Shown here one piece after another: positions 6,679 to 42,090 of a stretch of 64,000 nucleotides of DNA; positions within the stretch are counted from its first letter, which is position 1; every line of letters starts with the position of its first letter. The stretch is from an uncultured Spirochaetia bacterium (GTDB lineage Bacteria > Spirochaetota > Spirochaetia > SZUA-6 > Bin103): positions 73,270 through 137,269 of the forward strand of contig CATQHW010000005.1 of assembly GCA_958296075.1 (NCBI GenBank), given 5' to 3'. The notes below the pieces were generated by a model that worked only from the letters and a program-made list of their open reading frames with translations, searched no databases and had not been told where the DNA came from. Position numbers and translations under genes: made by a program.

Positions 6679-6734
6679 GCCACCTACAACGCCCCGGCGT
6701 CCGTGGCGCTTCATGCACGCCGCGGACGCCGCCG

Positions 6735-9929: not shown

Positions 9930-9930
9930 G

Positions 9931-13613: not shown

Positions 13614-13665
13614 CGGTTACTCCTCTCGGTTACCGGGAAACGCCGTTCCCGCAGGCGTCGGCGAC

Positions 13666-16463: not shown

Positions 16464-16467
16464 CGGG

Positions 16468-19577: not shown

Positions 19578-21938
19578 TCACGGGGAGAAGGTCGAATCCC
19601 AGACGTTGCCTTCCCCGGGCGTGTACTGGCCTGTCCTGATGCGGGCGATTTCATAGTCAGGCAATGACGTGATCGCAACGCACGTTCCGTCCAGGAACGC
19701 CCCGCGTTCCGCGAACGAAAAATCCAGGTTGTCGAAACCGGACTGAACCTGACGCCAGCGGGCGGGAAGGTCGGCGGCATCCGCTGGCACGACGTGCAGG
19801 AAGAACGGATCATGCACGTCCTCCGCCACGCACGGATCTCTGAGATACGTCAACGCGTTTCCAGCAAGATAGAGGTCGAAGATCGAGCGCGCCGCCGGCG
19901 CCCCGTAATCGCCGGCCAGGATCGACCGGTACGCCGACCGATACGGATGGAGCCGCTGCTCGGCGATCTCCGCCTTCCAGAGCGGGCCGTACGCGGGGAA
20001 ATACTGGCCGGTCGTGATATGGCCGATCCGGTAACCCGGCAGCGTAACGACCGCCAAGCATCTGCCGTCCAGGATGACGCCGCGCTCCGAAAAGGTAAAG
20101 TCCAGGTTGTCGAAACCGGACTGAACCTGACGCCAGCGGGCGGGAAGGTCGGCGGCATCCGCTGGCACGACGTGCAGGAAGAAACCGGCCTTCACGTCCT
20201 CTGCGGTGCACGGCTCCTTGAAGTACGCGAGCGCGTCGCCGTAGAGATAGATATCGAAGTGCGAGCGAACTACCTGATCTCCCGCAAGGGACGCCGAGCC
20301 GGACGGCCCGCCGGCCGCAGTGATCCGGAATATCACGCCGTCGTTCAGGTCCGCGACGAGTTCCACGCCCGGCAAGGCGCCCAATTCATCGAATACGTAG
20401 TCGTAATTACGAGCGCGAAACGAGTTCTCGAACAAGACGACATACGCCGATTCAGCAGGATCGCGGTTGGCAAGCTGATCCGTGACGTCGGCGAGAGAGA
20501 GGCTGATCGTCCAGACGCGGCGCAGCTCGGTAAGGAAATAGAGCGCCTGAGGATCGCTCGACCAGACGGTGCCGTCCAGCCGATTGGCGTTCAGATACCG
20601 GATGACGTCGGACTCGGTCCAACCCCTGGACGTGTAGCCGCTGCCGTCATCCAGCCACACCCTGGTAGCGTTGTAGGTCGCTCCGACCTGCTGCACCAGC
20701 CACAGCGAAACGACGATCGAGGCGACGACCGGAACCGCTTTTCCGATCTTCTTCGATGCCGCCGCGTTGCGGGCATGAGCGTTCGACATGAGTCCGTCCA
20801 GAACCATCGTCGCCGCTACCAGCAGCGGCGGAAACAACGGCAACAGATATCTGACCGCCAGCATCGTGTCGGCGAGCGGCAGATATATCGCCAGAAAGAG
20901 CGAGTACGCGGCGACGAAGACTATGGAAACGGTCAGTACGGTGCGGTTCTTGCGGAGGAATCCGGGCCGGTACCGCGCGAGTGCGTACCCGGCGCCGATC
21001 GCCGGCGCAGCCAGGACCGCCAGCTTCGCCGCGGTCGCGGTTACCGTGGCGGCTCCGGCCGGGCCGATGCTGGTAATGCTGCCGATCGCGCCGTTCAGCA
21101 CGTCGAATCCCGTTGGCCCCAATAACCACAAGGCGAATTCGTCGGTCGCGCGATGGAGGCTGATCAGACCGGAAAATCCATCTGGAAACTGTGATCCGAG
21201 AACCGATCCGATGACCAGCAGATTGCGCATTATCCATACGCCGACCGGCGCCATGGAAGCGACCGACCAGATCGCGGTGTCTCGGAGCCTGGTGCGAATT
21301 ACGATGTCGTTCCGCAGGAGGAGCACCAGCGCCCCGGCGCCGATCATGACCCCGCCCAGGTAGCGGGTCAGACATGCGGCGGCGGCCGCGGCCGCCGCCA
21401 GCAGGAGCGCGAGCACCTTCCCGCTGCTCAGGAACCGGTCCAGCAGCGAGAGCGCGATCACGATGAACAGGATGCAGACGACTTCCGTCCACGCATGAGC
21501 TGCCGCGGAGGCCAGTGCAGGCGACAGGGCGCACGCGCAGCCGGCCCACACGGCGAGCAGCGGCGACCGGACATGGCGTTTCAGCCACGCGGCGACCACG
21601 AAGACGGTCAACCCGAACGCGGCGGCGTTGACGTAGCCGGCCGCGTCGATGACATCGATGCCGAACAGACCGACGGCGGCCAGCAGCAGCGGGAAGAGTG
21701 GAGCGGCGCCCTGGTACCGGGTTCCGTTCCATTCGAGGAGCCCGTCTCCGGCCAACAGATTTCGAGCGACCGATATGTATGAACCGGAGTCCCAGGTCAG
21801 CCCAACCCCATGATTGGCCTCCCGCAGCAGGATGAGCGCTGCGCCGAGCACGCCGAGTGCGGGCACCGCGAACCGGGCCATGTCGTTCGACAACGCGGCG
21901 CGGCGCGGCGTTCGACGCGACCGCACGTTGGCGTTCAT
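19578..21938 (-). CDS. GT-C fold polyprenyl-phosphate-sugar-dependent glycosyltransferase (ArnT/PMT, GT39/GT83-like) with two C-terminal Cys-repeat modules
   Basis: N-terminal polytopic region with the first-loop motif GLTWDSGSYISVARNLLAGDG and more than 10 TM helices. The C-terminal about 240 aa are two tandem copies of a module with consensus F.YL.G..L.Y.K.PC...D....FFLHV.P....DLP......GF.NLDF.F...G....G.C.A...LP.Y.I..I.TGQY. Confidence 0.7.
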   Translation of the reverse strand: MNANVRSRRTPRRAALSNDMARFAVPALGVLGAALILLREANHGVGLTWDSGSYISVARNLLAGDGLLEWNGTRYQGAAPLFPLLLAAVGLFGIDVIDAAGYVNAAAFGLTVFVVAAWLKRHVRSPLLAVWAGCACALSPALASAAAHAWTEVVCILFIVIALSLLDRFLSSGKVLALLLAAAAAAAACLTRYLGGVMIGAGALVLLLRNDIVIRTRLRDTAIWSVASMAPVGVWIMRNLLVIGSVLGSQFPDGFSGLISLHRATDEFALWLLGPTGFDVLNGAIGSITSIGPAGAATVTATAAKLAVLAAPAIGAGYALARYRPGFLRKNRTVLTVSIVFVAAYSLFLAIYLPLADTMLAVRYLLPLFPPLLVAATMVLDGLMSNAHARNAAASKKIGKAVPVVASIVVSLWLVQQVGATYNATRVWLDDGSGYTSRGWTESDVIRYLNANRLDGTVWSSDPQALYFLTELRRVWTISLSLADVTDQLANRDPAESAYVVLFENSFRARNYDYVFDELGALPGVELVADLNDGVIFRITAAGGPSGSASLAGDQVVRSHFDIYLYGDALAYFKEPCTAEDVKAGFFLHVVPADAADLPARWRQVQSGFDNLDFTFSERGVILDGRCLAVVTLPGYRIGHITTGQYFPAYGPLWKAEIAEQRLHPYRSAYRSILAGDYGAPAARSIFDLYLAGNALTYLRDPCVAEDVHDPFFLHVVPADAADLPARWRQVQSGFDNLDFSFAERGAFLDGTCVAITSLPDYEIARIRTGQYTPGEGNVWDSTFSP
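19723..19805. repeat. 83-bp perfect direct repeat, copy A (inside the GT-C gene)
   Basis: tccaggttgtcgaaaccggactgaacctgacgccagcgggcgggaaggtcggcggcatccgctggcacgacgtgcaggaagaa is identical to 20101-20183. The flanks have diverged. Confidence 0.95.
20101..20183. repeat. 83-bp perfect direct repeat, copy B
   Basis: Identical to 19723-19805. The offset is exactly 378 bp (126 codons), so the two copies are in the same reading frame. Confidence 0.95.
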
Positions 21939-21950: not shown

Positions 21951-22652
21951 CTATGAGCGCTTGCGGAAGACGGCAAGGAAACTCGAGCCGATGAGAGCCA
22001 CCAGCGGCCCGCCGACACCCCGCAGTCGCATCCCCCACGGCGGAAAGATCGAGAGCCATTCTACCGGTTCGAGTCCGGCGCGGTCCGCCGCCGCGTGCAT
22101 CCGGGACGGTGGATGGTGGATCAGGTCGGATGCGGAATGCCGCCGGCGGTCGAGGATGCGCAAACCTGCGTCGGCGGCGCGGTGGACCCATGCCTTGCGA
22201 TTGGCCCAGGCGATTATCAGCCGCCCTCCGGCGCGCAGCACCCGCGCCGTTTCGCGCAGCACGCGCTCGACATCAGCGGCGCTGCACTGCTGGACCATCT
22301 CGACATTCACCACGACGTCCACGGTAGCGTCCGCCAACGGCAGATCGGTCGCGTTGCCGCGCAGCGCATGCAGTCCGTTCCGTCCGGCCTGCTCGCACGC
22401 CGCGCGATCCAGGTCCACGCCGGTGACGCGGCGCCCGGCCCGGACCAACGGCAGCGTCATCAAGCCGGAGCCGCAGCCGACGTCCAGGATCGTCCCGGAG
22501 CCGCCGCCGACGGCGGCCAACACGAACTCTCGTTCGCGCAGAAACCAGCGTTCGGAGATATAGCCGCATGCCCTGGGGCTGTTTTCGCCAAAACGCTGCC
22601 GCAGCGCCTCGTAAATCTTCTGGTCTCTGGGGTCAGCCTCGGTCTTGTCCAT
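21951..22652 (-). CDS. class I SAM-dependent methyltransferase
   Basis: Motif I ILDVGCGSGLMTLPL, then RVTGVDLD and DVVVNVEMVQ. Confidence 0.8.
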   Translation of the reverse strand: MDKTEADPRDQKIYEALRQRFGENSPRACGYISERWFLREREFVLAAVGGGSGTILDVGCGSGLMTLPLVRAGRRVTGVDLDRAACEQAGRNGLHALRGNATDLPLADATVDVVVNVEMVQQCSAADVERVLRETARVLRAGGRLIIAWANRKAWVHRAADAGLRILDRRRHSASDLIHHPPSRMHAAADRAGLEPVEWLSIFPPWGMRLRGVGGPLVALIGSSFLAVFRKRS

Positions 22653-22688: not shown

Positions 22689-23648
22689 TTAGAAATCCGC
22701 CAGATACCGGCACAACCGCGGGCCTGCGCGGTCGGTTAAGAAGTCCGGCAAGGTCCGCCAGAGTTTCTGCGCTACCCGGTAGCGGCGGTACGGATCGACC
22801 GGCTTGTCGCTCAGCCACAGGACCGGCACCGGACCGGCGCCGAAGTTGCGCTTGAAACGGTAGGTTCCACTGCCTGCCGGCGACCGTCCGAAATCGAGGA
22901 TATCCGCGCCGTCGTTCGCGGCTTGCTCAACCATGGCCCAAAACAGGAGGTTGCCGGGGCAGTCAGCGCTGTGATACGCTCCCGACCACGGCACCCAGGC
23001 GATCGGGCCGTCGCGCAGCCACAGCAAGCCGGCCTGCGGAGCTCCGTCCACGCGGTTGCGAACCACCAATGTCCGCGCTCCCATCTCCGTTATCAACCCC
23101 TCGAACAACGCCGCCGGCAGCATCGGCGCGCCATGCCGCGCGTGGGCCAGGCGAAGCATGGCGCAAAACGCCTGCAGGGCGCCCGGACCGGTCTCTTCCG
23201 CGGCGGCGAGCCCGGCCTTGCGAGCGCGCCGAACCGCCTTTCGCGCCACGCGGTTGAGTCCCCGTTCCCATACCGCTTCGCGAGCGTGGCCAAAGGCGGC
23301 TAGATCGATCCTGAGAACGGCGGGCGAGCCCGGCCGTAGTTCCCCTTCCGGGCGCGGCGCCGCCAAGGCCCGAATGTTGAACGGACGGCCCTGCACCTCG
23401 CGCGCGAGCTCCTGCGCAGCGGCGGCGTCCAGGTCGGAATAGTTCAGACCCGGCAGATACGCGAATACCGGCCGGCCGGCGAGTGAGGGAACCACGGCGA
23501 ACCGGCCGGCCTGCCGCCAGCGATAGACGCCGCATGATACCGACCGCCACGCGGCGACGAAGTCGGCGCTGTGCCGCAGGGTCAGGCGCCGGTCGTCGTG
23601 CGCTCCACGATACGCAGAACCACCGGCAAGGTCGGGGTACGTCTTCAT
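22689..23648 (-). CDS. FemAB-like / Acetyltransf_6 GNAT-fold transferase
   Basis: About 320 aa with C-terminal GADILDFGRSPAGSGTYRFKRNFGAGP (family pattern ...Y.FK..FG). Earlier it has KAVRRARKAGL, typical of FemAB/BioF2-like GNAT proteins. Confidence 0.6.
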   Translation of the reverse strand: MKTYPDLAGGSAYRGAHDDRRLTLRHSADFVAAWRSVSCGVYRWRQAGRFAVVPSLAGRPVFAYLPGLNYSDLDAAAAQELAREVQGRPFNIRALAAPRPEGELRPGSPAVLRIDLAAFGHAREAVWERGLNRVARKAVRRARKAGLAAAEETGPGALQAFCAMLRLAHARHGAPMLPAALFEGLITEMGARTLVVRNRVDGAPQAGLLWLRDGPIAWVPWSGAYHSADCPGNLLFWAMVEQAANDGADILDFGRSPAGSGTYRFKRNFGAGPVPVLWLSDKPVDPYRRYRVAQKLWRTLPDFLTDRAGPRLCRYLADF

Positions 23649-23930: not shown

Positions 23931-25675
23931 TCAGACATCGGCGGTCTTCTCGACCACGGCGTCGCAGTGGACCAGCTCCCAGCCGTGGAACACCAGCGCC
24001 AGCCCGGTGAAGCGGACCGACCGGTACTGCCGCGCCAGCCGCTCGTCGGCCGCATAGCGCCGCACCTGCGCCGTCGCCTCCGCCACCTGCGCCGCGTTCG
24101 CTTGCTCCTGCTTCAGATACTTCAGCTCGATCACGTAGCCGTGGCGTATGCTGGTATAGCGCTGCAGGTGCGGCTCCAGGCAGATGTCGGCGTAGCCGCC
24201 GCCCAGCTCCCGCTCCGAGTGGAATACGAAGTGCTCGGTGGCGCTCAGATAGGCTGCCAGGAAGCCCTGGATCACCTTCTCCCTGGAGGTAGTCGCGGAT
24301 CGCCGTCTGCCGGGCGATCGCTGCGCTCACAGGAACTCCACCACCGGCCGCCATGCGCCCCGGTAGGCCATCTCGTGCACCAAGCGGCCGAACGCATACA
24401 GGTCGACCGAGAACACCCCCACGTCGCGGTAGCCGTCGCGCAGGAAGGCGTACATCAGCCGCCGGACGGTCTGGTTGGGTATCCCCAGCCGCGGCCTGCC
24501 GTCGCGCACCTCGCGGATGCTGAGCAGACCGAAGAAGTGCAGCAGCGACAGGAAGTGCTCGCGCTGATTCAGTTGCTCCAGTGGGAAGCCGCCGGTGCTT
24601 TCGCTGTCGGCCCAACCCTCGCCGATGACGCGGCGCAACAGGTCGAAGTTGCCGTTCAACTGCCGGTTGACCGTGAGCAGGTGGCGCAGCTTGCCGTAGT
24701 CGATACGCACGTTGGTATCGATCAGATCGTCCGGCGGTTCCTCGTTCGGAATCGACTCCTTGAGGTAATAGAGCACCATGTCGGTGTTGTAGAGATCGTT
24801 CGGCGCGGCCTTGGCGAAGCGGTAGCCGTTGTACCACTCGCCCATCACCGCCATCGCCTCGTCCACGTTCTGGTCGAATACGCCGTGGTCCCGGTAGGTC
24901 GAAAGGATGCCGCGCACCTCCGCCTCGGTGAAGCCGAGCAGCTCGTTGAACTTCCGGCGCAGGCTGAGGTTGGCGGCGATGTTGAAGCCGCTGGTCACGT
25001 CGTCCATGGTGATCGGCGACACGCCGGTGACGAACAGGCGCTCGATGGCGCCGGCGCCGGCGCCGGCCTTGAGGGTGGCGAAGAAGTTGCGGTAGAAGCC
25101 GCCGCCGTGGGTGAAGGAGTGGTACGCCTCCGCCCGCGATGGGCCAGGATGGTGTTGGCGAAGTTGTCGTACTCGTCGATCAGCACGTACAGCGGGATGC
25201 CCTGCTCGCCGGCGTAGTCAAACAGCTCGTTCAGCCGGCCGTCGATGGCAGGGAGCGCCAGGATGCGGTCGATCACCGGCTGAGGAAACAGGTCCCGATT
25301 CCGTTCCAGCGCAGAGCGGAGTTTGATGAAGCAGTAGGTCTCGAAGCGCTCGCGCAGCGTCTCCAGGGTGTCGTCGAAGGCGGAGAAGTCGAAGCGCAGG
25401 ACGACGTACCGGTTGCGGTTCGGCGTCGGCCGGCGCCCGACGTCGGTGCCGGCGAACAGGGTCTCGAAGCTGTCAGCGCGGGTGCGATCGTAGTAGTGAT
25501 CGAGCAACGACACCCAGCACGACTTGCCGAAGCGGCGGGGGCGGATCAGAAAGGCGTAGCGCTCCTGCTCCAGGTCATGCAGGAAGCGGGTCTTGTCGAC
25601 GTACAGGGTGCGCTCGCGACGCATCGCTGCGAAGTCCGCCCAGCCGTAGGGGATCTGCGGATATGCGCTGCTCAT
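23931..25675 (-). pseudogene. AAA-ATPase_like + PDDEXK_9 (DUF1703) family gene inactivated by about 3 frameshifts
   Basis: Three consecutive ORF pieces are colinear with the intact paralogue at 40288..42090. They are the lower part of 24995..26482 from ATG 25675 (MSSAYPQIPYGWADF...DEYDNFANTILAH), then 24327..25022, then 23931..24275. There is a 1-nt deletion near 25133, and two further frame changes at 24276-24330. Confidence 0.8.
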
Positions 25676-25861
25676 CGATTCCGTGCGCTGGTGCCGGCGA
25701 CCAGGATCAGCCCGCCCGCGATCAGCATAGGGTCGGCCGACCCGTTTCGTCGAGACGCGGCCGCCGGCACCGCAAAAGACCCGCGGGCTCGCCAGGCAGG
25801 TGGCGCACGTGTACGATGAATCGTTCTGGCAGCTCCTTCCGTTCGTTCCAGGAGACCTCCG

Positions 25862-26872
25862 ATGCAGTGGGCTAGGCCGTGGACCTGGGCGCTCGCCGCG
25901 ACCGTCAGTCTGGCGCTGTTCGGAGTGGTCGCCACGCGGCTCGACGCGGCTTCCCTGGCCGCCGCGGCGGCTTCGTTTTCGTGGCCTCTCGTCGCGGCGG
26001 GGTCGGCGCTCCTGGTGGCGGCGCACCTGTTCGGCGCCCTGCGGACTCATCTGATCGCCGAGCGCGGCCCGTTTACCACCGCCATACGGGTCACTGCCTG
26101 GCATGCAGTCTGGCTGATCGCGCTGCCGATGCGCCTGGGAGAAGTGGCCTGGGTCGTGGCCATGCGCAAGGCCTACGGGTGGAACCCGGCCACGGCAGTC
26201 GTCTGCGCCCTGGTACAGCGGCTGCTGGACTTGGCGGTCATCGCCGCCTTCCTGCTGCTGGCGACGCCGGCGGTTCTCGGCCTGGGCCGGGATGGGGCGC
26301 CGCTGATCGCCGCCGCGGCCGCCACCGCCTGCGGGCTGGCGCTCGCCGGCGCCGTGACGCTGCGGGTCTGGCTGCGCCTGATCGCCCGGCTGGTGATCGC
26401 GACCGGCCGTCCGCGCGGTTGGCGATTGCGTGTTTTGCATCACCTGCGCCAAGGTCGGCGGTGGCTGGAAAGCGTCCATCATCGGCGCATCATGCGACTA
26501 TGCCTGATGCCTACGGCGCTGTCGTGGCTGGCGGTCTTCGGCGGCCATTGGCTTCTCTGCCAGGCGATCGGCCTGCAGGTGGCCGTGGCCGAACTCCTGT
26601 TCGCGGCCGCCGGCAGCAATCTGATAACGGCGCTCCCGGTGCAGTCCATCGGCGGGTTCGGGCTGATGGAGGTGGGGTTCACCGGCATCCTCGCCTGGTT
26701 CGGCTCCCCTGCCGATACCGCCGCTGTCGCCGCCCTGACAATTCGTTTCGCCACCTGGGTCGGGACCGGCCTGTTCTGGCTGATCGGCCTGCTGTCGGTA
26801 CGGGTGCGGCGCGGCGTTCAATGCCGCTCTCCGGCGATCGCCGGCGGTTTACTCCGGCAAGACGAGGAATGA
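25862..26872 (+). CDS. LPG_synthase_TM / UPF0104 flippase-like membrane protein (MprF N-terminal-domain family)
   Basis: 336 aa with about 8 TM helices. Motifs RLGEVAWVVAMRK and ALPVQSIGGFGLMEVGFTGILAWFG are typical of this family. Confidence 0.65.
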   Translation: MQWARPWTWALAATVSLALFGVVATRLDAASLAAAAASFSWPLVAAGSALLVAAHLFGALRTHLIAERGPFTTAIRVTAWHAVWLIALPMRLGEVAWVVAMRKAYGWNPATAVVCALVQRLLDLAVIAAFLLLATPAVLGLGRDGAPLIAAAAATACGLALAGAVTLRVWLRLIARLVIATGRPRGWRLRVLHHLRQGRRWLESVHHRRIMRLCLMPTALSWLAVFGGHWLLCQAIGLQVAVAELLFAAAGSNLITALPVQSIGGFGLMEVGFTGILAWFGSPADTAAVAALTIRFATWVGTGLFWLIGLLSVRVRRGVQCRSPAIAGGLLRQDEE

Positions 26873-27777: not shown

Positions 27778-30700
27778 TCACCTCCGCACGTTGTCTTCCG
27801 CGCGGCGCGGCGGGTACGACGGCTGCAGGAGGTACGGCTCCTCGTTCGGAAGCAGCGAGAGCGTGGCGGTCTCCGTAAACGCGGGGATGCGGCCGACGAC
27901 CTTGCCGTTCTGCGTGACCTCCACCGGTGCGTCGAACCAATCGGTCGGCCGCCTGAATATCAACGTCAACGGCTGATCGAACCGGTCATTGTCCAGACCG
28001 TCCGCCAGCACGAACTCGATCCGGCGCGTCACTCCGTCCCGTTCGATCACCTGCATGGTAACCTCGGCGTTCTCCCGTTCCCGCAGGTAGAGAACCACGT
28101 CGTTCATCGGGGCGACCCAGAAGTCGCGGGCGGCGATGGCTCGAAGGTCCGCCTGAAAGTCTTCCCAGTCGTAGAATCCCCAGCCCTCTCGGCTGCCGAT
28201 ATTGTGGTACACGGGAATGATCCAGGCCGTACTGTGGAGCGCGTGGTCCAGGATGGGGACCAGCTCTCGGGTGTCGTTGATGCACCAGTCGCACTGCCGG
28301 AAGTCGATGCTCTCCATGGTCAGGGCGGGCAGGAAGAACCAGTTATCGGGGGTCGTTTCGGAATCGGGAACGATGTACGGGGTCTGATCCGCCATCCAGA
28401 ACGACAGGCGGCCGGCCAGAAAACCCGCGTCGGCCAGCGCCTGCTGGGTCTCCGCTTCGCCGCCGGCCCCGCGCGGATAGGCGTAGGCTACCGGCTCCAA
28501 CCCCAGGCGCTCCATCACCTCGAAGGAGAGTCGGAACGAATCGTAGGCCTGAGCGTAGGTGAGGGCGTCGTGGTCGACGTGCCAGTGCCCGTGCCCGAAG
28601 AAGCCGAACCCGTGGGCGGTGAGCGACAGAGCGTACTCGATCTGATCGTCGGTCAGGCGGTCGTACAGGTCGCCGGGAACGACGTCCGGGATGAGCTCCG
28701 TCAAGTCGTGCTCGACCCAATCGGGCACCCGGTCTTGGTACATCTGGGTGACCATCTCGTAGTCCAGCACCAGCCCCAGGTCCAGTGCCAGGTCGTCGAC
28801 GGCGTTGGGCGCCCGCGGCGAGCCGTCGTACGTGACGGAGATGGCCGCGTCGTGGTCGTCGAACCACTTCGCTATGGTGATCTCCGGAGAATGGGGAGGC
28901 GGCTTGCTGACCGTGAACGCCGCCTCCCAGAGCTGCTCCCCGCCGCCGCCGGCGGCATACTGGCCGGTGCGGATGCTGGCGATTTCATAGGCGGGAAGCG
29001 GGACCTCCGCCCGGCATCTCCCGTCTGACGCCAAGCCGCGGTTGCGGAATTCGAAGTCCAGGCTATCGAACCCATGCTCCCGGCGATGCGCGGGCAGGTC
29101 GGCGGCGGCGGCCGGTCGGAGGTGCAGGAAGAACTCCGCCTGCGCGTCCCGCGCGGCGCACGGTTCCTTGCGGTAGACCAGCGTGTTCCCGAGCAGGTAG
29201 ACGGCGAAGTCCGGTCGCACCGCCGGTACGACCAGCGTCACGTTCCAGAGCTGCCCGGCGCGCGGCGTAAACTGGCCGGTTGCCAAGCGGGCGACCGGGA
29301 AGTCGGGAAGATCGCGCACCGCTACGCAGAGCCCGCGGTAGCGAAACCCGTGGCGGTCGAAGTCGAAGTCCAGGTTGTGGAACGAGTACCCGGAGACGGG
29401 GAGGTCGTGGTAGTTGCCCGGCACGACGTGCAGGAAGAACCTTGCCTCGACGTCAGCGTCTCGACACCCGTTCTTCGTGAAGATCAGCCGGTCGGCGGCG
29501 GCGTCCAGGTACACCGTGAATTCGGAGCGAAGGCCGATGCTGGCATCTTTCAGAAGCGGCTGCGTGATGCCGCCCGCGTCCAGTGGCGCAGTCGGCGCGC
29601 TGCGGCGCAGGATGACGCCATCATCCAGGGCGGCCACGACCGCCATTCCCGGCATCCGCAGCAATGTCTCCAGACCGTAGCCATAGCGCCCGGAGTCCCG
29701 ATAGAACCAGGCGACGTAGCGCTCCCGGCCGGCGGCCTCCTCCGCGGAGAGCCGAGCCCACGCTCGCGAAAGCTCCTGCGGAAGCTGGTAAGCGCCGGTA
29801 TCCGCCGCCGTCAGAAGGTAGATCGCGGCGCCGTCGGTGCCGTGGATGGCGCCCTGGGGGCGGCCGGCATTCAGGTAACGAACCACGTCGGACTCCGACC
29901 ACTGCCGCGACGCGTAGCCGCCGCCGGTCGCACGCCGCTGTTCGACGTGATCGGCAGTCGCTCCGGCCTGCGGCGCGAGCCACAGCGCGACCAGCAGTGC
30001 GGCGGCGAGTGGCCGCCGCGCCAGCCATCGTCCCGCCGGTCGAACCCGGGAGATCAGCTCATCCAGGACCAGGGTTGCCGTTACCAGCAACGGCGGGAAC
30101 ATCGGCGTCAGGTGCCTGAGCTCGAGCGCGGCGCCGCCTGCGGGAAGGGCGATCAGCAGATAGAGCGCGTACGCCGAAACGAACACGAGAGGGACGGACA
30201 CGTAGGAAATGGCCGTCGCCGTGTGATTTCCCCGCAGGAATCGGCAGCGGCGCCGCGCGAGCGCGTACCCGACGCCGGCCACCGGTACCAGCAGGACGGC
30301 GATCCGCAACGCGACCGCGGGCACGCCGGCACCCGGCATTCCCGCGGCCAACCGGTCCAACAGCCCGAGTCCGGTTCGTCCAATGAGCCACAGGATGAAC
30401 TCACCGGTGGCGGTGTGGAGACTCCGCAGCGGCAGGAATCCGCCGGGACTGGCCGTTCCAAAGGACGCTCCGCTCACGACCAGATTTCCCACCAGCCATG
30501 CGCCGATGGGTGCCGCCGATACGCCGATCCAGACCGCCGCGGCCGCCAGCCTGCTGCGCGCTACGGTGGTTCTCCGTACCAGCAGGAGCAACGCGCCACT
30601 GCCGATCAGAGTCACGCCGGCATAGTGTGTCAGGCCGGCGGCCGCGGCCGCCGCCGCCGCCAGGACGAGGAGCGGCCTCCTGCCCGTGCGCAGAAAGCGG

Positions 30701-32685
30701 TCCAGCGTGGACAGCGACACGACGGCGAACAGGATGAAGGGGATTTCGGGCCACACGTGCGCCGCCACGCCGGCCAGCGAGGTCGACAGGGCGCAGGCGC
30801 AGCCCGCCCAGACGGCCACCAACCGAAACCGAACGCGGCTTCTCACCCACGCGGCGACGGCGTACGCCGTCAGACCGAAGGCGGCGGCATTGAGGTATCC
30901 CGCCGCCGTGACCAGGTCCGCACCGAACAGGCCGGCAGCCGCCAGGGTCACCGGGAAGAGCGGGCCCGCTTCCCGAAACGGGGTGCCGAGGAACGTGACC
31001 AGCCCAGCGCCGTCCAGCAGATTGCGCGCGGCCGACACGTAGAGCGCCGAGTCGGACGTCAGCCCTGGCCCGTAGGCGGTTTCCCACAGCAGAATCAGCA
31101 GCGCACCGACCCCGCCGAGCGCCGCCAGGAACATCGGCAACCCGTCGAGCCGGGCTGCGTGGCGAACGATGCTGCTGCCCGCCAGGGCGCGCCGTGCGGC
31201 GCTCGCGGCGCGTTTGGTGGTGTCCATCTCCATGACCGCCGCGAGCGCGTAGCACAGCGCCAGCGCGTACGGCAGGAACAGGTAGCGGGCGCGGCGATAC
31301 ATCAGATCGTCGGGTATCAGGAGGTGCACGGCGGCGAGCGCCATGAGCGCCGCGATCCACCACGTGCGGCGCAGCAGCGCCGGCCGGTTCCGGCGAGCCT
31401 GCAGGGTAGCGAAGCAGGCGGCCGCGGCGCAGGAGAGGGCCGCGACCCACGTCAGGATTCTGCCGGCCCGCACGCTCCCCAGCCCCATCTGCCAGTACGG
31501 CTCGAAATGCACGACCAGCGGGGCTCCCGCCGGCGCGCGATACCGGTCCGCATACTCGGGAATCGGCAGCCGGCGAGTCAGTTGCTCGAGACCGGGGACG
31601 TCCGTGACGAACTCCCGAACCGTCTGGATCAGGACACCGAGCACTTTGCTGCTCAAGACCCTCCACGTCAGCGCGTCCTGCGGCGCCCCTTCGCATGCTG
31701 CGCGCCACGCGAACCAGTCGGGAACGAGACACGCCTCGAGCGCCATCTTGGCCGCCTGACCCAGGGCGTAGGCAGCGGCGAAACCGGCGATATAGAGCCC
31801 AACGCACCCGCCGGCCAGCCGTGCCCGGCCGGCGGGTGCGGGTTGGTGGTCGTATCCGAAATAGACCAGCATGCCGATGAGCGTGACCATCACGATGCCG
31901 TGTCCGTCGCCCAACCACAGGTATGACGAAACCATGCCGGCGGCGAAGCAGACCAGCCGCGTCAGCCGCAGGCGGGTCTCCGGCGGTGTCGGAGACGGCA
32001 GCCGCGCGCGCATGGCGACGACCAGCGCGACGGACGTCCATACCGCCCAGGCGTACGGTATGCCGATGGCGACGCCTGACAACCAGCGGATGCCGGAGAA
32101 CAGGCAGCCGAAGACGATCAGCGGCGCAAGGATGGCCAGCGTCCGGGGCGCGAGCAGCAGCAGCGCCGCCGCCAGCGCGATCCAACCGGCGTACGCGGCA
32201 TACCGTATCAGGATGCGGATGTCCTGCACGGAAAGGCTGCGCAGCATGACGGCATAGAGCGCCTTGCTGCCCCACCAGTATTGCGTTGAGGAGAAATATT
32301 CGTCTACGTAGAGCCCGTTTACCGCGTCCGCCAACTCGCCGCAGTAATCGTAGTAATCGCCTCGCGGCGCCAACACCTTCGGCAGCAGAGCGTCGCGGAA
32401 TCCGTTGCCGCCCTCGGCGAGCGGCTGGTGCGCTCCGGCCAGGACCATCGCCGACAGCTTGCAGTCCTCGAATGGTGTATTGAATCCTGCCGCGAAGCCC
32501 TCGTCCGGCCGATCGGTCGCGATCTCGGCGGCGAACTTCTGCACCGCGGCGCGAAAGTAGATCTGGTTGCCGAGGTGGTGCAGGAAGATGAACAGCGCCG
32601 TGCCGAGTAGCGCCGTCGCCGTATAGACGGCGACCGGCGCGAGGGGCGAGCGCCGCCGCGGCGCCCGCCCCTCGTCCGCGCCCAT
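27778..32685 (-). CDS. 1635-aa multidomain membrane protein: unknown polytopic module + GT-C glycosyltransferase + 2 Cys-repeat modules + CE4 deacetylase domain
   Basis: I chose the ATG at 32685-32683 because it shares one base with the GT2 stop (TGATG).
- About 32685-31200: unknown TM module.
- About 31150-29540: colinear with the 786-aa GT-C protein, roughly 50% identity by eye (GLTSDSALYVSAARNLLDGAG; VAVWAGCACALS).
- About 29535-28905: two repeat modules (FFLHVVPGNYHDLP, FFLHLRPAAAADLP).
- 28880-27778: CE4 motifs ISVTYDG, HGHWHVDH, AYPRGAG. Confidence 0.75.
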   Translation of the reverse strand: MGADEGRAPRRRSPLAPVAVYTATALLGTALFIFLHHLGNQIYFRAAVQKFAAEIATDRPDEGFAAGFNTPFEDCKLSAMVLAGAHQPLAEGGNGFRDALLPKVLAPRGDYYDYCGELADAVNGLYVDEYFSSTQYWWGSKALYAVMLRSLSVQDIRILIRYAAYAGWIALAAALLLLAPRTLAILAPLIVFGCLFSGIRWLSGVAIGIPYAWAVWTSVALVVAMRARLPSPTPPETRLRLTRLVCFAAGMVSSYLWLGDGHGIVMVTLIGMLVYFGYDHQPAPAGRARLAGGCVGLYIAGFAAAYALGQAAKMALEACLVPDWFAWRAACEGAPQDALTWRVLSSKVLGVLIQTVREFVTDVPGLEQLTRRLPIPEYADRYRAPAGAPLVVHFEPYWQMGLGSVRAGRILTWVAALSCAAAACFATLQARRNRPALLRRTWWIAALMALAAVHLLIPDDLMYRRARYLFLPYALALCYALAAVMEMDTTKRAASAARRALAGSSIVRHAARLDGLPMFLAALGGVGALLILLWETAYGPGLTSDSALYVSAARNLLDGAGLVTFLGTPFREAGPLFPVTLAAAGLFGADLVTAAGYLNAAAFGLTAYAVAAWVRSRVRFRLVAVWAGCACALSTSLAGVAAHVWPEIPFILFAVVSLSTLDRFLRTGRRPLLVLAAAAAAAAGLTHYAGVTLIGSGALLLLVRRTTVARSRLAAAAVWIGVSAAPIGAWLVGNLVVSGASFGTASPGGFLPLRSLHTATGEFILWLIGRTGLGLLDRLAAGMPGAGVPAVALRIAVLLVPVAGVGYALARRRCRFLRGNHTATAISYVSVPLVFVSAYALYLLIALPAGGAALELRHLTPMFPPLLVTATLVLDELISRVRPAGRWLARRPLAAALLVALWLAPQAGATADHVEQRRATGGGYASRQWSESDVVRYLNAGRPQGAIHGTDGAAIYLLTAADTGAYQLPQELSRAWARLSAEEAAGRERYVAWFYRDSGRYGYGLETLLRMPGMAVVAALDDGVILRRSAPTAPLDAGGITQPLLKDASIGLRSEFTVYLDAAADRLIFTKNGCRDADVEARFFLHVVPGNYHDLPVSGYSFHNLDFDFDRHGFRYRGLCVAVRDLPDFPVARLATGQFTPRAGQLWNVTLVVPAVRPDFAVYLLGNTLVYRKEPCAARDAQAEFFLHLRPAAAADLPAHRREHGFDSLDFEFRNRGLASDGRCRAEVPLPAYEIASIRTGQYAAGGGGEQLWEAAFTVSKPPPHSPEITIAKWFDDHDAAISVTYDGSPRAPNAVDDLALDLGLVLDYEMVTQMYQDRVPDWVEHDLTELIPDVVPGDLYDRLTDDQIEYALSLTAHGFGFFGHGHWHVDHDALTYAQAYDSFRLSFEVMERLGLEPVAYAYPRGAGGEAETQQALADAGFLAGRLSFWMADQTPYIVPDSETTPDNWFFLPALTMESIDFRQCDWCINDTRELVPILDHALHSTAWIIPVYHNIGSREGWGFYDWEDFQADLRAIAARDFWVAPMNDVVLYLRERENAEVTMQVIERDGVTRRIEFVLADGLDNDRFDQPLTLIFRRPTDWFDAPVEVTQNGKVVGRIPAFTETATLSLLPNEEPYLLQPSYPPRRAEDNVRR

Positions 32686-33872
32686 CACCGCTCGCGCGTC
32701 GACCCGCGCATGGTCCCCTGCGTCGCCAGCAGCGCGTAGAAAAAGGCGGAGAATATCAGCTCCACGCCACAGATCAGGAGCGTAACGGACGGAACCGCCG
32801 CGCGCATCCGCACCTCGATGTTCGGGCTGCCCATCTGTGCCCATACGAACAGGCTCCAGATGCTTCCCGCCGCTCCCACCAGCACCAGAATGATCCCCGT
32901 CACCACGCCGACGTCCAGGAGCAGGCCGCTCTTCGGGTTCAGCCGCGCCGACCAGCGTCCGTCAGACAGACCGATGTTCTCGCAGAACGCGCTCGCCAGT
33001 AGTGCGAAGATGATCAGTTGCAACCCGCACACCACGAACGCCGCGCCGAACAGCATGGTGTACGATCCGTAGCTGCCGCCCGCTTCCACGGGGTACAGAA
33101 TCGGTATGAGTATCGCCAGCGCTCCGGCCGCGAACAGCATACATCCCGGATAGAGATACAGCCAGCGGGGCGACAGCATCAACAGGAGCCGAAGATGACG
33201 CCAGCCGTCCCGCCACACTCGCAGGTGCGAAGCGCGCTCCGGATCGAGCGCGTGGCGCTGTACCACCGGCACTTCGGCTATGCGCATGTCGGCCTTCACG
33301 GCCTTGACGATCATCTCGCTGGCCGCCTCCATGCCCGGGCACCGCAGCGCAAGGGAGCGCGCGCTGCAAGTCTTGAATCCCCGCAGACCGCAGTTGAAGT
33401 CCCTGACCGGCGAGCGGAACAGCACCTTGCCGACGCCGGACAGGACCGCGGTGCCGGCGTTGCGCAATCGGCTCGATGCGGCGACGCCGGCCGCGAACCG
33501 GTTCCCGAACACGAAGTCGTAGCCTTCGCGCAGCTTTTCGTAGTACGGCTCCAGCGATCCCAGGTCGTGCTCGCCGTCGCCGTCTCCCAGGATGATGAAG
33601 CGGCCGCGGGCGGCGTCGATGCCGGCGTTGATCGCGTTGCCGTATCCCGGACGCGACTCGACGACGACCCGCGCGCCGGCGCCTTGGGCCAGATCGGCCG
33701 AGCGGTCGCGGCTGTCGTTGTCGACCACGACGACCTCTCCGTCGATGCCGTTCCGGTCCAGGAAGCCGCGGGCTTCGCCGACGCAGTGAGCGATCGAGCC
33801 CTCCTCGTTGCGGCACAGGATCACGATCGTGAGGTCGTGCCGCGCTCGCGACGGACCGGCGGGTTCGGGCAT
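32685..33872 (-). CDS. GT2 glycosyltransferase with C-terminal TM helices (polyprenyl-phosphate sugar synthase type: ArnC/GtrB/CsbB/DPM1-like)
   Basis: LTIVILCRNEEGSI, VVVDNDSRDRS, GYGNAINAGI and IILGDGDGEHD (the DxD). About 4 C-terminal TM helices are present. Confidence 0.8.
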   Translation of the reverse strand: MPEPAGPSRARHDLTIVILCRNEEGSIAHCVGEARGFLDRNGIDGEVVVVDNDSRDRSADLAQGAGARVVVESRPGYGNAINAGIDAARGRFIILGDGDGEHDLGSLEPYYEKLREGYDFVFGNRFAAGVAASSRLRNAGTAVLSGVGKVLFRSPVRDFNCGLRGFKTCSARSLALRCPGMEAASEMIVKAVKADMRIAEVPVVQRHALDPERASHLRVWRDGWRHLRLLLMLSPRWLYLYPGCMLFAAGALAILIPILYPVEAGGSYGSYTMLFGAAFVVCGLQLIIFALLASAFCENIGLSDGRWSARLNPKSGLLLDVGVVTGIILVLVGAAGSIWSLFVWAQMGSPNIEVRMRAAVPSVTLLICGVELIFSAFFYALLATQGTMRGSTRER

Positions 33873-33878: not shown

Positions 33879-34883
33879 TCAGGACTCCGGAGGAGCGATG
33901 TCGGCGGCGTGAACCCAGCCGAAGTTGCGGTAGCTGCCGCGTACGCGCACGTCGTACCAGTCGCCCACGCGGCCCAGCACCGACAGCCGGTCGCCCGGCC
34001 GCAGATGCAGCCGCACCCCGGACCGGCGGTCGGGGGATGCGTGAACGGCGATGCCGGCGCGCGGCGAGCGCAGGAATTCGGTCCGCGGCGCCACGAGCGA
34101 TTGGCGGTCGTGCGGGTCGCGCTGCTCCAGGTAGGCCAGCAGGCCGTCGGCAAGCCCGCGCGCCGCCGCCTCCGGCCGCTCGTGCAGGAACGCGCGGTCG
34201 CGGGCGTTGCTCAGGTAGCCGAGCTCGAAGATCGTCGCCGGTGTGGTGGGGGCGATGGCGTGCCGGTAGCGGCCGCTGAAGGCGTAGTAACCGCGCATGT
34301 TGATGGTGATTCCGTTCAGGTCCTCCGGCAGGCCGGTGGCCGGCCCGTAGTGGTCGCGCAGCGCAGCGACCAGCAGGCGCGAGGCCGGGGAGGCGTACCA
34401 CGGCGGCGACGCCTTGTAGCCGCGCACGTCGGTATTCGTGCTGCCGTCGGCATGGATTGCCACGAAGGCGTCGGCGTCGAATCCCGGCGGGATGGTGGCC
34501 GGCAGCACCTCGACCACGACGCCTTCGGCCTCCAGGATGGCAGCGACCGCGTGGACCACCGCGCGGTTGATCTCCACCTCACCGATGCCGCCGGCATACG
34601 CCCCGGTAGAGTTGCGCAGACGGCGCAACTCGTCCGGCAGCAGCGCCGCGTCCAGGTGCCCGATCTGCAGGCCGACCCGCCACGGCGCATCGGCGCCGCG
34701 CACCGCGGCCGGCTGGCCGGCGGTTTCGCCGCCGCGCGGCGCGGCGGACCGGGCGGGCTGGCTACGGAAATACAGGATCGCCCACGAGACCGTCGCGGCG
34801 GCCACCAGGACGAGCACCGCGGCAGCGGCCGGCCGCACGCGCGTAACGGACTTCACGGACCCCGACAGTATAATGCCGTTCAT
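33879..34883 (-). CDS. membrane-anchored N-acetylmuramoyl-L-alanine amidase (Amidase_3) with C-terminal SH3b domain
   Basis: N-terminal anchor AAAAVLVLVAAATVSWAILYF. Amidase_3 motifs LQIGH, EVEINRAVVHAV and FVAIHADGS. The C-terminal GDRLSVLGRVGDWYDVRVRG...GWVHAADI is SH3b-like. An alternative GTG start lies at 34856. Confidence 0.75.
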   Translation of the reverse strand: MNGIILSGSVKSVTRVRPAAAAVLVLVAAATVSWAILYFRSQPARSAAPRGGETAGQPAAVRGADAPWRVGLQIGHLDAALLPDELRRLRNSTGAYAGGIGEVEINRAVVHAVAAILEAEGVVVEVLPATIPPGFDADAFVAIHADGSTNTDVRGYKASPPWYASPASRLLVAALRDHYGPATGLPEDLNGITINMRGYYAFSGRYRHAIAPTTPATIFELGYLSNARDRAFLHERPEAAARGLADGLLAYLEQRDPHDRQSLVAPRTEFLRSPRAGIAVHASPDRRSGVRLHLRPGDRLSVLGRVGDWYDVRVRGSYRNFGWVHAADIAPPES

Positions 34884-40287: not shown

Positions 40288-42090
40288 TCATCTACCGGCA
40301 CGGCGGGTTTCCGTTCCGCTCGACTCCACCACCTCTGCGCTGTGCACCAGTTCCCAGCCGCGGAACACCAGCGCCAGCCCCTTGAACTCCGCCGCTGGGT
40401 AGCGGCGCGCCAGCCGCTCGTCCGCCAGATAGCGGCGCAGTTGCGTGACCGCCGCGGCGGCCGTGGACGCCACCTGCGCCGCCGTCGCCAAGTCGCGGCG
40501 CAGGTACTTCAACTCGATCACGTAGCCGTGCCGCATGCCCGGATAGCGCGCCGCCAACGGCTCCAGCACGATGTCCGCGTAGCCCTTCGCCAGTTCCAGC
40601 TCGGTGTGGAACACGAAGTAACCCGACGCGCTCAGGTAGGCGGCCAGGAAGCCCTGCACCACCTTCTCGCCCTGCAGGTAGTCGCGGATGCCGGTCTGCT
40701 CGGCCACCGCGGTGCCGAGCCGCTCGACCGCCGGGCGCCAGTCGCCGGCCAGCGCCATGCGCCGCGTCAGCCGGTCGAACTCCACCAAGTCCAGCGAGAA
40801 CACTCCGGTCTCCCGGTAGGCTTCGCGCAGGTAGCTGTACATCAGGCGCCGCACCGTCTGATTGGGGATGGCGAGGCGCGGCACGCCGGCCGCCATCCCG
40901 CAGATGCTCAGCAGGCCGAAGTAGTGCAGCAGCGACAGGAAGTTCTCGCGCTCGCCGAGCAGCGCCAGCGGGAAGGACTCCACCAGGTCGCTGTCGGCCC
41001 GCCCTTCGGCGATCACCTGCCGCAGCAGGTCGAAGTTGCCGTTCAACCGCCGCCCGGTCACCAGCAGGTGGCGCAGCTTGCCGTAGTCGATGCGCACGTT
41101 GACGTCGATCAGGTTGTCGGGTCCGGGCTCGTTGGGGATGGAGTGCTTCAGGTAATAGAGCACCATGTCGGTGTTGTAGACGACCTGCTCGGCGACCTTG
41201 GCGAAGCGGTAGCCGGCGTACCACTCGCGCATCGTGGCCAGCGCGGCATCCACCTCCTGGTCGAATACGCCCAGGTCCCGGTAGGTCTCCAGCAGGCCGC
41301 GCACCTCGGACTCGGTGAAGCCGAGCAGCTCGTTGAATTCCGGCCGGAGGCTCAGGTTGGAGCCGATGTTGAAGCCGCTGGTGGCGTCGTCCATGGTGAT
41401 CGGCGACACGCCGGTGACGAACAGCCGCTCGATGCTGCCGTTTTCGGTGCCGGCCTTGAGGGTGGCGAAGAAGTTGCGGTAGAAGCCGCCGCCGTGGGTG
41501 AACGAGTGGTACGCCTCGGCGCCCTGGTGCGCCAGGATGGTGTTGGCGAAGTTGTCGTACTCGTCGATCAGCACGTAGAGCGGTATCCCCTGCCGCCGGG
41601 AGTGCAGGAACAACGCGACGAGTTTGTCGGTGATCGTCGGCTCCGATCGAAACTGCGCCACCACGGGTTCCGGGAAGAGATCCGGATTGCGTTCCGCCGC
41701 GTCCATGAACACCTTGGCGCAGTAGTTCTCGAAGTTTCGCTCCAGCGTCTCGGGGGCGTCGTTGAAGGCGGAGAAGTTGAACCGCAGCACGACGTAGCGG
41801 CTGCGGTTGGGCGTCGGGTGGCGGCCGATGTCAGTGCCGGCGAACACCGCCTCGAAGTCGTCCGCCTCGGTGCGGTCGTAGTAGCTCTCCAGCAGCGACA
41901 GCCAGCAGGTCTTGCCGAAGCGCCGCGGGCGGATGAAGAACACGAACCGCTCCTGCTCCAGGGCGTGCAGGAAGCGCGTCTTGTCGACGTACAGGCAGCC
42001 TTCCCGGCGCAGGCCCTTGAAATAGGCGAGCCCGTAGGGGATCGTCGGATACGGCGCAGGAGCGCGGGACGGCGCAGCGGGCGCGGACAC
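40288..42090 (-). CDS. AAA-ATPase_like + PDDEXK_9 (DUF1703) family protein, intact
   Basis: N-terminus YVDKTRFLHALEQERFVFFIRPRRFGKTCWLSLLESYY (P-loop-like RPRRFGKT) and YVLIDEYDNFAN (Walker B-like). The C-terminal nuclease core is ELELAKGYADIVLEP...GYVIELKYL (the D...E-x-K). GTG start at 42090. Confidence 0.8.
   Translation of the reverse strand: MSAPAAPSRAPAPYPTIPYGLAYFKGLRREGCLYVDKTRFLHALEQERFVFFIRPRRFGKTCWLSLLESYYDRTEADDFEAVFAGTDIGRHPTPNRSRYVVLRFNFSAFNDAPETLERNFENYCAKVFMDAAERNPDLFPEPVVAQFRSEPTITDKLVALFLHSRRQGIPLYVLIDEYDNFANTILAHQGAEAYHSFTHGGGFYRNFFATLKAGTENGSIERLFVTGVSPITMDDATSGFNIGSNLSLRPEFNELLGFTESEVRGLLETYRDLGVFDQEVDAALATMREWYAGYRFAKVAEQVVYNTDMVLYYLKHSIPNEPGPDNLIDVNVRIDYGKLRHLLVTGRRLNGNFDLLRQVIAEGRADSDLVESFPLALLGERENFLSLLHYFGLLSICGMAAGVPRLAIPNQTVRRLMYSYLREAYRETGVFSLDLVEFDRLTRRMALAGDWRPAVERLGTAVAEQTGIRDYLQGEKVVQGFLAAYLSASGYFVFHTELELAKGYADIVLEPLAARYPGMRHGYVIELKYLRRDLATAAQVASTAAAAVTQLRRYLADERLARRYPAAEFKGLALVFRGWELVHSAEVVESSGTETRRAGR

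Follow-up and report, generated by a model that had tools for sequence, protein, structure and literature searches.

A four-part membrane fusion protein of Spirochaetia joining a predicted GT-C transferase to a deacetylase-like domain, with a proposed role in lipid-carrier-dependent glycan modification

The window analysed here, a stretch of 64,000 nucleotides from an uncultured Spirochaetia bacterium (contig CATQHW010000005.1, positions 73,270 to 137,269), carries on its reverse strand, at 27778-32685, an open reading frame (ORF) for a fusion protein of 1635 amino acids (aa). The product is a real and conserved single inner-membrane polypeptide with approximately 21 transmembrane (TM) helices, in which a 10-TM module (N), a predicted PMT_2/ArnT-like glycosyltransferase of the GT-C class (G), two copies of a domain called REP (R) and a NodB-fold deacetylase-like domain (D) follow one another in this order (Table 1). 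By analogy with known systems, the fusion would form the periplasmic end of a lipid-carrier-dependent glycan-modification pathway of the Arn/Gtr type, a reading to which we assign a probability of about 0.6. An earlier note on this DNA, made from the sequence alone, had described the protein as a four-part fusion; the continuous frame and the 16 homologues of the same module order described below bore this out.

The window has a G+C content of approximately 68%, and the G+C content at third codon positions (GC3) was followed along the ORF, whose upstream-most possible start lies at 32844. GC3 stayed between 0.70 and 0.96 in the fusion frame from the ATG at 32685 through the stop codon, with no sign of a frameshift, and was low only upstream of 32685, where the gene of a family 2 glycosyltransferase (GT2) occupies another frame. 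The TGA of the GT2 gene overlaps the ATG of the fusion gene (TGATG), an arrangement that couples the fusion gene translationally to GT2. Public collections hold an identical 1635-aa product (P0001). The unbroken coding-level GC3, the TGATG overlap and the recorded product together indicated one uninterrupted coding frame with a well supported start.

A module scan of the fetched proteins identified nine with the architecture N-G-R-R-D (1605-1635 aa, approximately 66-73% identity) and seven in which it is extended by an additional in-frame R-R-D cassette (approximately 2000-2240 aa). At least 16 homologues thus share the module order of the fusion, some of them encoded on circular contigs of 4.1-4.6 Mb. 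The other architectures found were N-G-R (two proteins), N alone and N-R(1-7) (many), D alone (81), D-R and R-D. At one locus of a second Spirochaetia metagenome-assembled genome (MAG) (L003, 10001-18919), a stand-alone N and a D fragment are followed by an N-G-R-R-D-R-R-D protein of approximately 2200 aa, which indicates that the R-R-D unit was duplicated as a cassette. Within the fusion, conservation was highest in D (77-82%) when compared to the other modules (56-74%), and the fusion is flanked by the same set of genes in the same order in two further loci, L031 and L001. The earlier note had also raised the question of split forms, and these do occur. Locus L032, in the same genome as the protein P0008, has a stand-alone N gene that shares a 4-nt overlap with the gene for a 706-aa G-REP-REP protein. 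This protein has 40-59% identity to the centre of the fusion, and the gene pair provides a Rosetta-stone link of N to the GT-C module; free lipoprotein homologues of D are described below.

These observations bear on the possibility that the long ORF merely joins adjacent genes through a sequencing or assembly error, or through the recent loss of a stop codon, and gives no functional single protein. Such an origin would agree with the existence of split N and G-REP genes and with the alignment of the GT-C part from Met1 of its paralog, aa 487 of the fusion being itself a Met. However, the frame and the GC3 signal run without interruption, the same junctions recur at approximately 66-73% identity in 16 proteins that come independently from several assemblies, circular chromosomes among them, and the longer variants carry their further R-R-D cassette in frame. 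An assembly or frameshift artefact was thus rejected on the continuous GC3 and the junctions conserved in relatives, and we regard a joined ORF of this kind as highly improbable.

The central part of the fusion was assigned through a paralog of 786 aa in the same window, which has the composition G-REP-REP and lacks N and D. In a BLASTP comparison, aa 487-1258 of the fusion aligned to residues 1-785 of the paralog, starting at its Met1, with 44% identity and E = 2e-163; the colinearity proposed earlier thus held, over approximately 772 aa at 44% and not over the 640 aa at 50% first estimated. The paralog matched PMT_2 at E = 3.6e-4 with 21.2 bits, below the cut-off of 26.1. Among six members of the GT-C family, four matched PF13231 (PMT_2, best E = 9.7e-10) and two matched PF02366 (PMT), and the protein P0034 has a precomputed PF13231 match. 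An Asp residue of the fusion, Asp545 in the motif GLTSDS (D59 of the family alignment), is invariant and lies in the first periplasmic loop just after TM1. On this sequence evidence the central module is predicted to be a PMT_2/ArnT-like GT-C transferase, with Asp545 as the candidate catalytic residue.

The model of D computed with AlphaFold 2 (AF2) reached a predicted local distance difference test (pLDDT) score of 93.7. A Foldseek search of this model against the PDB gave 54 matches at E <= 1e-3, and deacetylases of carbohydrate esterase families 4 and 18 (CE4 and CE18) predominated among the top 50 listed. The best fold match was the CE18 enzyme Agd3 (6nwz; E = 5.6e-9, TM-score 0.47/0.30, approximately 12% identity), and others were the M. 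smegmatis structure 3rxz (E = 2.5e-7), PdaC, SlCE4 (2cc0), Bc1960 and VcCDA. Secondary Foldseek matches to GH35 and GH66 enzymes may arise from the C-terminal beta-sandwich. In an alignment of 34 sequences with identities down to 33%, the invariant positions of D were D27, H105, H109, D113, Y143-P144 and H234, and H112 was nearly so. These residues fall in the motifs TYDG (D27), HGHWHVDHD (H105, H109 and D113), YPRG (Y143-P144) and YHNIG (H234). H105 and H109 supply the HxxxH of the CE4 motif MT2, and H234 would, from its position alone, correspond to the later catalytic His (MT5). When the D profile was compared with PDB sequences, TYD fell on TFDD and HGHxH on HSYSH of the CE4 structure 7y51, at E = 0.45. 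The full-length fusion had no match in Pfam or NCBIfam, and a minority of the D homologues carried a precomputed PF01522 match.

D also exists as a free protein. The free homologues have 370-440 aa and up to 68% identity to D, and most of the 29 N-termini inspected showed a hydrophobic, signal-peptide-like stretch that ends in a lipobox-like Cys (LAAGC, IAGC, LTAC). One of them, the free lipoprotein P0046 (68% identity; locus L030, 8001-9221), adjoins UbiA, FAD_binding_4 and adh_short genes and a gene for an unannotated 763-aa protein, a gene set that resembles decaprenyl-phospho-arabinose synthesis with a GT-C enzyme.

REP is an undescribed domain of approximately 105 aa, of which 396 copies were found in 192 fetched proteins, with no match in Pfam and no sequence match in the PDB. 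Across 21 diverse repeats its invariant positions were C24, C70, P39, L76-P77, T86-G87-Q88 and W97. Fusions of REP with each of N, G and D occur, those with D in both the D-R and the R-D order, and REP behaves as an accessory domain shared by all three catalytic-type modules. Most simply it would be a substrate-binding domain, comparable to the carbohydrate-binding modules (CBMs) of Emb, AftD and GT136 enzymes.

The topology was assigned from hydropathy and the positive-inside rule. For the GT-C module, an assignment of 11 TM helices placed every Arg-rich loop inside and the C-terminus outside, and hydropathy showed no hydrophobic segment after aa 912 of the fusion. In the N-REP proteins, one extra TM helix is present between the cytoplasmic end of N and REP. 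The N-in/C-out arrangement of the GT-C module, the invariant Cys pairs of REP, the lipoprotein signals of the free D proteins and the extra helix of the N-REP proteins together placed REP and D in the periplasm. The extracytoplasmic location suggested earlier for the repeats and the deacetylase-like domain was thus also the predicted one.

The AF2 model of N, built on an alignment of 30 homologues, was an all-helical membrane protein with a pLDDT of 87 and a predicted TM-score (pTM) of 0.89. The helices of the model, together with hydropathy and charge, placed two large periplasmic loops in N, one of 113 aa after TM1 and one of 87 aa after TM7, and the short Arg-rich loops all lay on the cytoplasmic side according to the positive-inside rule. 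The TM1 loop contains a conserved Cys pair (C75 and C115) and a YWWGSK motif. The further conserved residues, namely HH..N at the end of TM1, SG, PY.W, DGH, K313 and R464/R467, lie for the most part at the interface with the periplasm. When 1.84 billion cluster representatives were searched exhaustively with the N profile, only 215 clusters were detected at E <= 1e-3, indicating that the N family is small and undescribed. Its layout, a polytopic core with a large extracytoplasmic loop after TM1 and a linkage to a synthase of lipid-linked donors, fits that of GT-C enzymes in general, for which a polytopic core and a large extracytoplasmic loop after TM1 have been described (PMC11127046).

The genes around the fusion (Table 1) include candidates for the other steps of the proposed pathway. 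The GT2 protein had its best PDB matches in GtrB sll0501, ArnC and DPMS (E = 2e-6 to 9e-6), and its orthologues carry PF26629 (GT2_TM_C). The LPG_synthase_TM protein is a candidate flippase for the lipid-linked sugar. Directly downstream of its gene, and convergent with the fusion gene, lies the gene of a second CE4-like protein of 288 aa, in whose sequence neither a signal peptide nor a TM helix was found and which is thus predicted to be cytoplasmic. It shows 85% identity to its L031 orthologue, for which the PDB matches were 3qbu (E = 1.7e-5) and 3rxz (E = 1.6e-4), and is of the HP0310/3rxz-like type. By analogy with ArnD, this protein could deacetylate the lipid-linked donor. The methyltransferase gene of the cluster is also found elsewhere, directly upstream of N-REP genes in four loci (L005, L006, L009 and L011). 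When the region 16471-38852 was compared with L031, the flanking housekeeping genes were 89-97% identical; the most diverged genes of the cluster were those of the fusion (72%), the G-REP paralog (64%), the methyltransferase (69%) and the LPG_synthase_TM protein (73%), and the other cluster genes showed 82-85%. This divergence is what would be expected of a surface-glycan locus, through either faster evolution or replacement.

In the pathway we propose, GT2 would charge polyprenyl phosphate with a sugar, probably an N-acylated amino sugar, on the cytoplasmic side of the membrane, where the cytoplasmic CE4-like protein, the GNAT-type acetyltransferase and the methyltransferase may tailor the lipid-linked sugar in the manner of ArnD. 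The LPG_synthase_TM protein would flip it across the membrane, and the GT-C module, with Asp545 as its candidate catalytic residue, would transfer the sugar to an acceptor polymer in the periplasm, possibly with participation of N. The REP domains might hold this polymer in the way of CBMs, and the tethered D domain would de-N-acetylate it.

N and its neighbours are not restricted to Spirochaetia. A scan of genomes with the N profile detected 28 loci, and the MAG labels of N loci were Spirochaetia (the closest, with 70% and 57% identity), Dehalococcoidia, Gammaproteobacteria including Azotimanducaceae, Nitrospirales, Vicinamibacterales, Terriglobia, Binatia, Thermodesulfobacteriota and Alphaproteobacteria. 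The GT-C and D modules accompany N in the Spirochaetia loci only, apart from a few G-REP neighbours in L023 and L027. In seven loci outside Spirochaetia, representing at least six lineages, the N(-REP) gene is closely preceded, on its own strand, by the gene of a GT2 homologue with 50-70% identity; N-REP directly follows GT2 in Dehalococcoidia, Thermodesulfobacteriota, Binatia, Nitrospirales, Alphaproteobacteria and Azotimanducaceae. Elsewhere N-REP lies directly downstream of the methyltransferase or GNAT gene of the cassette, with the CE4-like and LPG_synthase_TM genes further upstream. In the Binatia locus L034, the GT2/N-REP pair is situated inside a polysaccharide cluster of the Wzm/Wzt type, in which no Pfam-recognisable GT-C was found.

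The cassette genes were compared across phyla in 12 loci (about 1-10000 of each of L004, L005, L006, L007, L010, L011, L015, L019, L022, L023, L026 and L028), where the identities to the copies in the window were likewise 50-70% for GT2, and 59-70% for the CE4-like protein, 58-65% for GNAT and 48-64% for the methyltransferase. The presence of the cassette in the monoderm-type Dehalococcoidia as well as in diderm lineages makes an acceptor specific to lipid A unlikely. N-REP genes also form tandem arrays of up to seven or eight genes (L009, 3349-16527; L033, 1298-16783), and arrays were seen in L007 and L025 as well. Inside the L033 array there are two ORFs of 59 aa, one of which matches a fragment of the methyltransferase gene; the arrays and this fragment pointed to repeated duplication of the unit. 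The cassette proteins are thus unusually similar across phyla, and Spirochaetia and Gammaproteobacteria MAGs originate from one and the same assembly (ERZ25068400); together this suggests horizontal exchange of the cassette within one community, possibly a sponge-associated one.

The comparison with characterised systems underlies the proposal. In the Arn pathway, the steps are carried out in the order ArnC, ArnD, ArnE/F and ArnT (PMC12690121). The cluster resembles it in having a GT2 whose best PDB matches include ArnC, a CE4-like protein that lacks a signal peptide, a flippase candidate and a PMT_2/ArnT-like GT-C module that would act on the periplasmic side; it differs in that the GT-C module is joined in one chain to the 10-TM module N, to two REP domains and to D, a second deacetylase-like domain that is predicted to be periplasmic, in that the flippase candidate is an LPG_synthase_TM protein instead of the small multidrug resistance (SMR) pair of Arn, and in that the genes arnA and arnB are not present. 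Three-component systems of the Gtr type consist of GtrA, GtrB and a serotype-specific GtrC, and they include the GT136 system of Citrobacter youngae; the periplasmic transferase of such systems may carry an extra CBM (PMC11127046). The likeness here lies in the GT2 polyprenyl-phosphate-sugar synthase gene followed by a polytopic transferase gene, with GtrB sll0501 as the best PDB match of GT2. In contrast to the Gtr systems, the cluster has neither GtrA nor a multidrug and toxic compound extrusion (MATE) flippase, two different polytopic modules are fused with a deacetylase-like domain attached, and for the N family no similarity to any known Gtr or GT-C family could be detected.

A third parallel comes from mycobacteria, in which the GT2 enzyme PpgS (Rv3631) makes polyprenyl-P-GalNAc and the GT-C enzyme Rv3779 puts GalN/GalNAc on arabinogalactan (PMC3485146). 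As the donor is polyprenyl-P-GalNAc and the product is GalN/GalNAc, a de-N-acetylation step is implied there. In the locus L009, a gene for a small DUF2304 membrane protein comes after the GT2 gene that precedes the N-REP array, an arrangement that recalls PpgS/Rv3632. Rv3632 is, as we assume, itself a DUF2304 member. The mycobacterial system differs in that no deacetylase is fused to Rv3779 and in its organisms and acceptors, and the amino-sugar donor of the present pathway is a deduction. With respect to D, Agd3 of CE18 carries CBM87 and has an Asp-Asp pair (D377/D378), and CE4 enzymes likewise have DD (PMC7229062). D shares with Agd3 and with the CE4 exopolysaccharide deacetylases PgaB and IcaB the combination of an extracytoplasmic NodB fold with an HxxxH metal motif and joined domains that bind, or in the case of REP may bind, carbohydrate, whereas it differs from Agd3 in its single Asp and other motif spacing, in being tethered to a membrane GT-C instead of secreted, and in having REP in place of CBM87. 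EmbA/B/C and AftD have a GT-C core followed by periplasmic carbohydrate-binding domains that hold the acceptor (PMC11127046); REP shows no sequence similarity to known CBMs, and the Emb/Aft enzymes have no second membrane module or esterase domain. Pathways of this type (Arn, Gtr, PpgS/Rv3779) are thus already known, as are GT-C enzymes that carry binding domains in the periplasm (Emb, AftD, GT136) and CBM-bearing exopolysaccharide deacetylases (Agd3, PgaB). The covalent GT-C/deacetylase fusion, the N family and the REP domain are undescribed in the sources searched; a literature search found no description of a GT-C/deacetylase fusion, in agreement with what the earlier note had supposed.

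Several results weigh against assigning the fusion to such a pathway. The GT-C segment of the fusion itself matched neither PF13231 nor PF02366, so that its GT-C membership is reached by transitive homology through the family members that do match, and the profile of the GT-C alignment retrieved no GT-C among PDB sequences, but only spurious matches to FcRn and SecY. To our knowledge, LPG_synthase_TM is not among the flippase families proven for such systems. The points concerning D are its score of 13.5 bits against PF01522 (E = 0.072), below the cut-off of 23.1, and its single Asp (D27, followed by Gly or a variable residue) where CE4 and CE18 have Asp-Asp; in the comparison of CE18 motifs, the DD of CM1 was not conserved in D. 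The Pfam score and the single Asp led to the rejection of canonical CE4 membership, and together with Agd3 as the best fold match they define D as a NodB-fold CE4/CE18-like domain and not as a CE4 member. A C-terminus of approximately 320 aa with CE4 motifs had been claimed earlier; the motifs were recovered as invariant columns, but the module comprises 375 aa and the canonical assignment did not survive. The fold matches of D further include 7bkf, and CE4-fold pseudoenzymes exist. D might be either an inactive glycan-binding pseudoenzyme or an esterase or amidase directed at a different polymer of the envelope, for example peptidoglycan, with the N-acyl group of the donor removed by the cytoplasmic CE4-like protein as in Arn. 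In favour of this view are the sub-threshold score, the single Asp, the presence of the CE4 pseudoenzyme BA3943 among the fold matches, the conserved signal-less CE4-like gene beside the flippase-like gene and, in two genomes, the Amidase_3/SH3 gene directly upstream. On the other hand, the candidate metal and catalytic residues are invariant over the 34 sequences (H112 nearly so), which argues for an active metal centre, D is the best-conserved module of the fusion, and its free homologues are exported lipoproteins in glycan loci. We therefore consider both alternatives for D quite improbable and retain the tethered deacetylase of the Arn/Gtr-type pathway.

The remaining points against the proposal concern N. 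No Pfam match was obtained for 30 close and 32 distant members of the N family, and NCBIfam gave none either; profiles of both the close and the distant members found no sequence match in the PDB. The Foldseek search of the N model against the PDB gave nothing significant (best E = 0.2), the matches of highest probability being STT3A (0.69, TM-score 0.32) and ArnT (0.25, TM-score 0.26), and a search against BFVD aimed at phage GtrC proteins found no match. The polytopic N-terminus without a known motif noted earlier has thus stayed without a match in fold and profile searches alike, although it measures 486 aa and not 500-560 aa. An origin of N by duplication and divergence of the GT-C core was rejected, as hhalign of N against the GT-C family aligned only the REP domain shared by the two. 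Finally, the near-invariant Arg of the family motif RYWWG is a Gln in the fusion (STQYWWG, aa 135-140, window 32266-32283), and one of Gln, His and Tyr takes its place in all of the Spirochaetia clade in which N is fused or adjacent to a GT-C; the N module of Spirochaetia may thus have a modified role. The generic layout and the linkage to GT2 put N where GtrC works, but they are not proof of GT-C membership. Its position in the genomic slot of GtrC/GT-C and the generic layout of such enzymes, to which an optional binding domain in the periplasm belongs, nevertheless favoured N as a lipid-linked-sugar transferase. We infer from this gene context that N is a new transferase of the GtrC kind with a likelihood approaching, but not exceeding, an even chance.

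N could instead be a flippase, transporter or scaffold that delivers the polyprenyl-phosphate sugar to the fused GT-C, so that the donor is channelled from flippase to transferase. In three-component systems, a GT2 gene is normally paired with a flippase gene (PMC11127046). N, which has no detectable GT-C similarity, stands next to a GT-C or is fused to one in the Spirochaetia clade, and the loss of the near-invariant Arg in the GT-C-fused clade fits a changed or auxiliary role. However, most family members are N-REP proteins with one to seven periplasmic REP domains and an export TM helix, for which a flippase has no obvious need, and at L034 and similar loci, which contain GT2 and N-REP with no recognisable GT-C, the pathway would then miss its transferase. 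A separate flippase-like gene (LPG_synthase_TM) already travels with the cassette, and the conserved polar residues of N cluster at the periplasmic membrane interface, as in enzymes that use lipid-linked donors. A flippase or scaffold function of N is thus unlikely in our view, and the transferase function remains the preferred one.

A further, rather speculative extension of the transferase function would make N the founder of a new family of polyprenyl-phosphate-sugar-dependent periplasmic glycosyltransferases, with a fold unrelated to known GT-C enzymes and with REP as its acceptor binder. The cassette, here taken as GT2, the flippase-like protein, the cytoplasmic CE4-like protein, GNAT, methyltransferase and either N-REP or G-REP, to which D may be added, would then be a toolkit for amino-sugar decoration of the surface that is exchanged horizontally and diversified in tandem among unrelated bacteria of one community, probably a sponge-associated one, with the Spirochaetia fusion as the most condensed form of it. 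We hold this wider view to be doubtful as a whole. If the Arn/Gtr-type pathway is correct, the fusion would tie a lipid-carrier-dependent transferase to a polysaccharide deacetylase on the outer side of the membrane, and a cationic amino-sugar decoration would be produced at a single site. N and REP are two new domain families that their gene contexts tie to polyprenyl-phosphate-sugar pathways in at least eight bacterial lineages, and N offers a concrete candidate for periplasmic glycosyltransferases of a new class. The identity of 56-70% among cassette proteins of different phyla, the shared assembly and the tandem N-REP arrays suggest a horizontally shared, rapidly diversifying surface trait, which, if true, would be expected to matter for host and phage recognition in dense symbiotic communities.

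Table 1. Modules of the fusion protein and associated genes, in coordinates of the window. GNAT, GCN5-related N-acetyltransferase; SAM, S-adenosylmethionine.
Feature	Position	Strand	Basis and remarks
N module, aa 1-486	31228..32685	(-)	10 TM, N-in/C-in; AF2 model, conservation, positive-inside rule
Arg-rich cytoplasmic linker (aa 487-515) and GT-C TM core (aa 516-912, ~11 TM)	29950..31227	(-)	homology to paralog
GT-C periplasmic domain, aa 913-1040, after last TM	29566..29949	(-)	colinear with paralog; kept in GT-C paralogs elsewhere
REP copy 1, aa ~1051-1152	29230..29535	(-)	~105-aa undescribed domain
REP copy 2, aa ~1153-1262	28900..29229	(-)	as copy 1
D, catalytic part, aa 1261-1540	28066..28905	(-)	NodB-type (beta/alpha) barrel; AF2 and Foldseek
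D, C-terminal beta-sandwich, aa 1541-1635 and stop codon	27778..28065	(-)	AF2 strands, module residues 281-362
Paralog G-REP-REP, 786 aa, without N and D	19578..21938	(-)	
GT2, polyprenyl-phosphate glycosyltransferase type	32685..33872	(-)	PF00535, E = 1.3e-19
LPG_synthase_TM (MprF flippase-domain-like) membrane protein	25862..26872	(+)	PF03706, E = 1.1e-28; kept in L001, L031 and other phyla
Second CE4-like protein, ~288 aa	26887..27753	(+)	PF01522, E = 3.7e-3 (orthologue 6e-4); start codon not fixed, homology from 26896
GNAT, Acetyltransf_6 (FemAB-like)	22689..23648	(-)	PF13480, E = 1.3e-14; conserved across loci
SAM-dependent methyltransferase	21951..22652	(-)	PF08241, E = 2e-22; conserved across loci
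Amidase_3 + SH3_3 gene, 7 nt upstream of GT2	33879..34883	(-)	linked in L031, not in L001; membership of the system uncertain

Three further observations were made in the window. Between the LPG_synthase_TM and Acetyltransf_6 genes, a copy of the AAA-ATPase_like + PDDEXK_9 gene (40288-42090, reverse strand), 67% identical to it and frameshifted near 25133, has been inserted at 23943-25654 on the same strand, and none is annotated at this place in L031. The long ORF at 24995-26482, which overlaps the LPG_synthase_TM gene, is largely spurious. At 12660-17430 on the reverse strand, the genes stand in the order MoxR, DUF4129, DUF58, MoxR, with MoxR-type AAA_3 ATPases flanking, an arrangement unrelated to the fusion.

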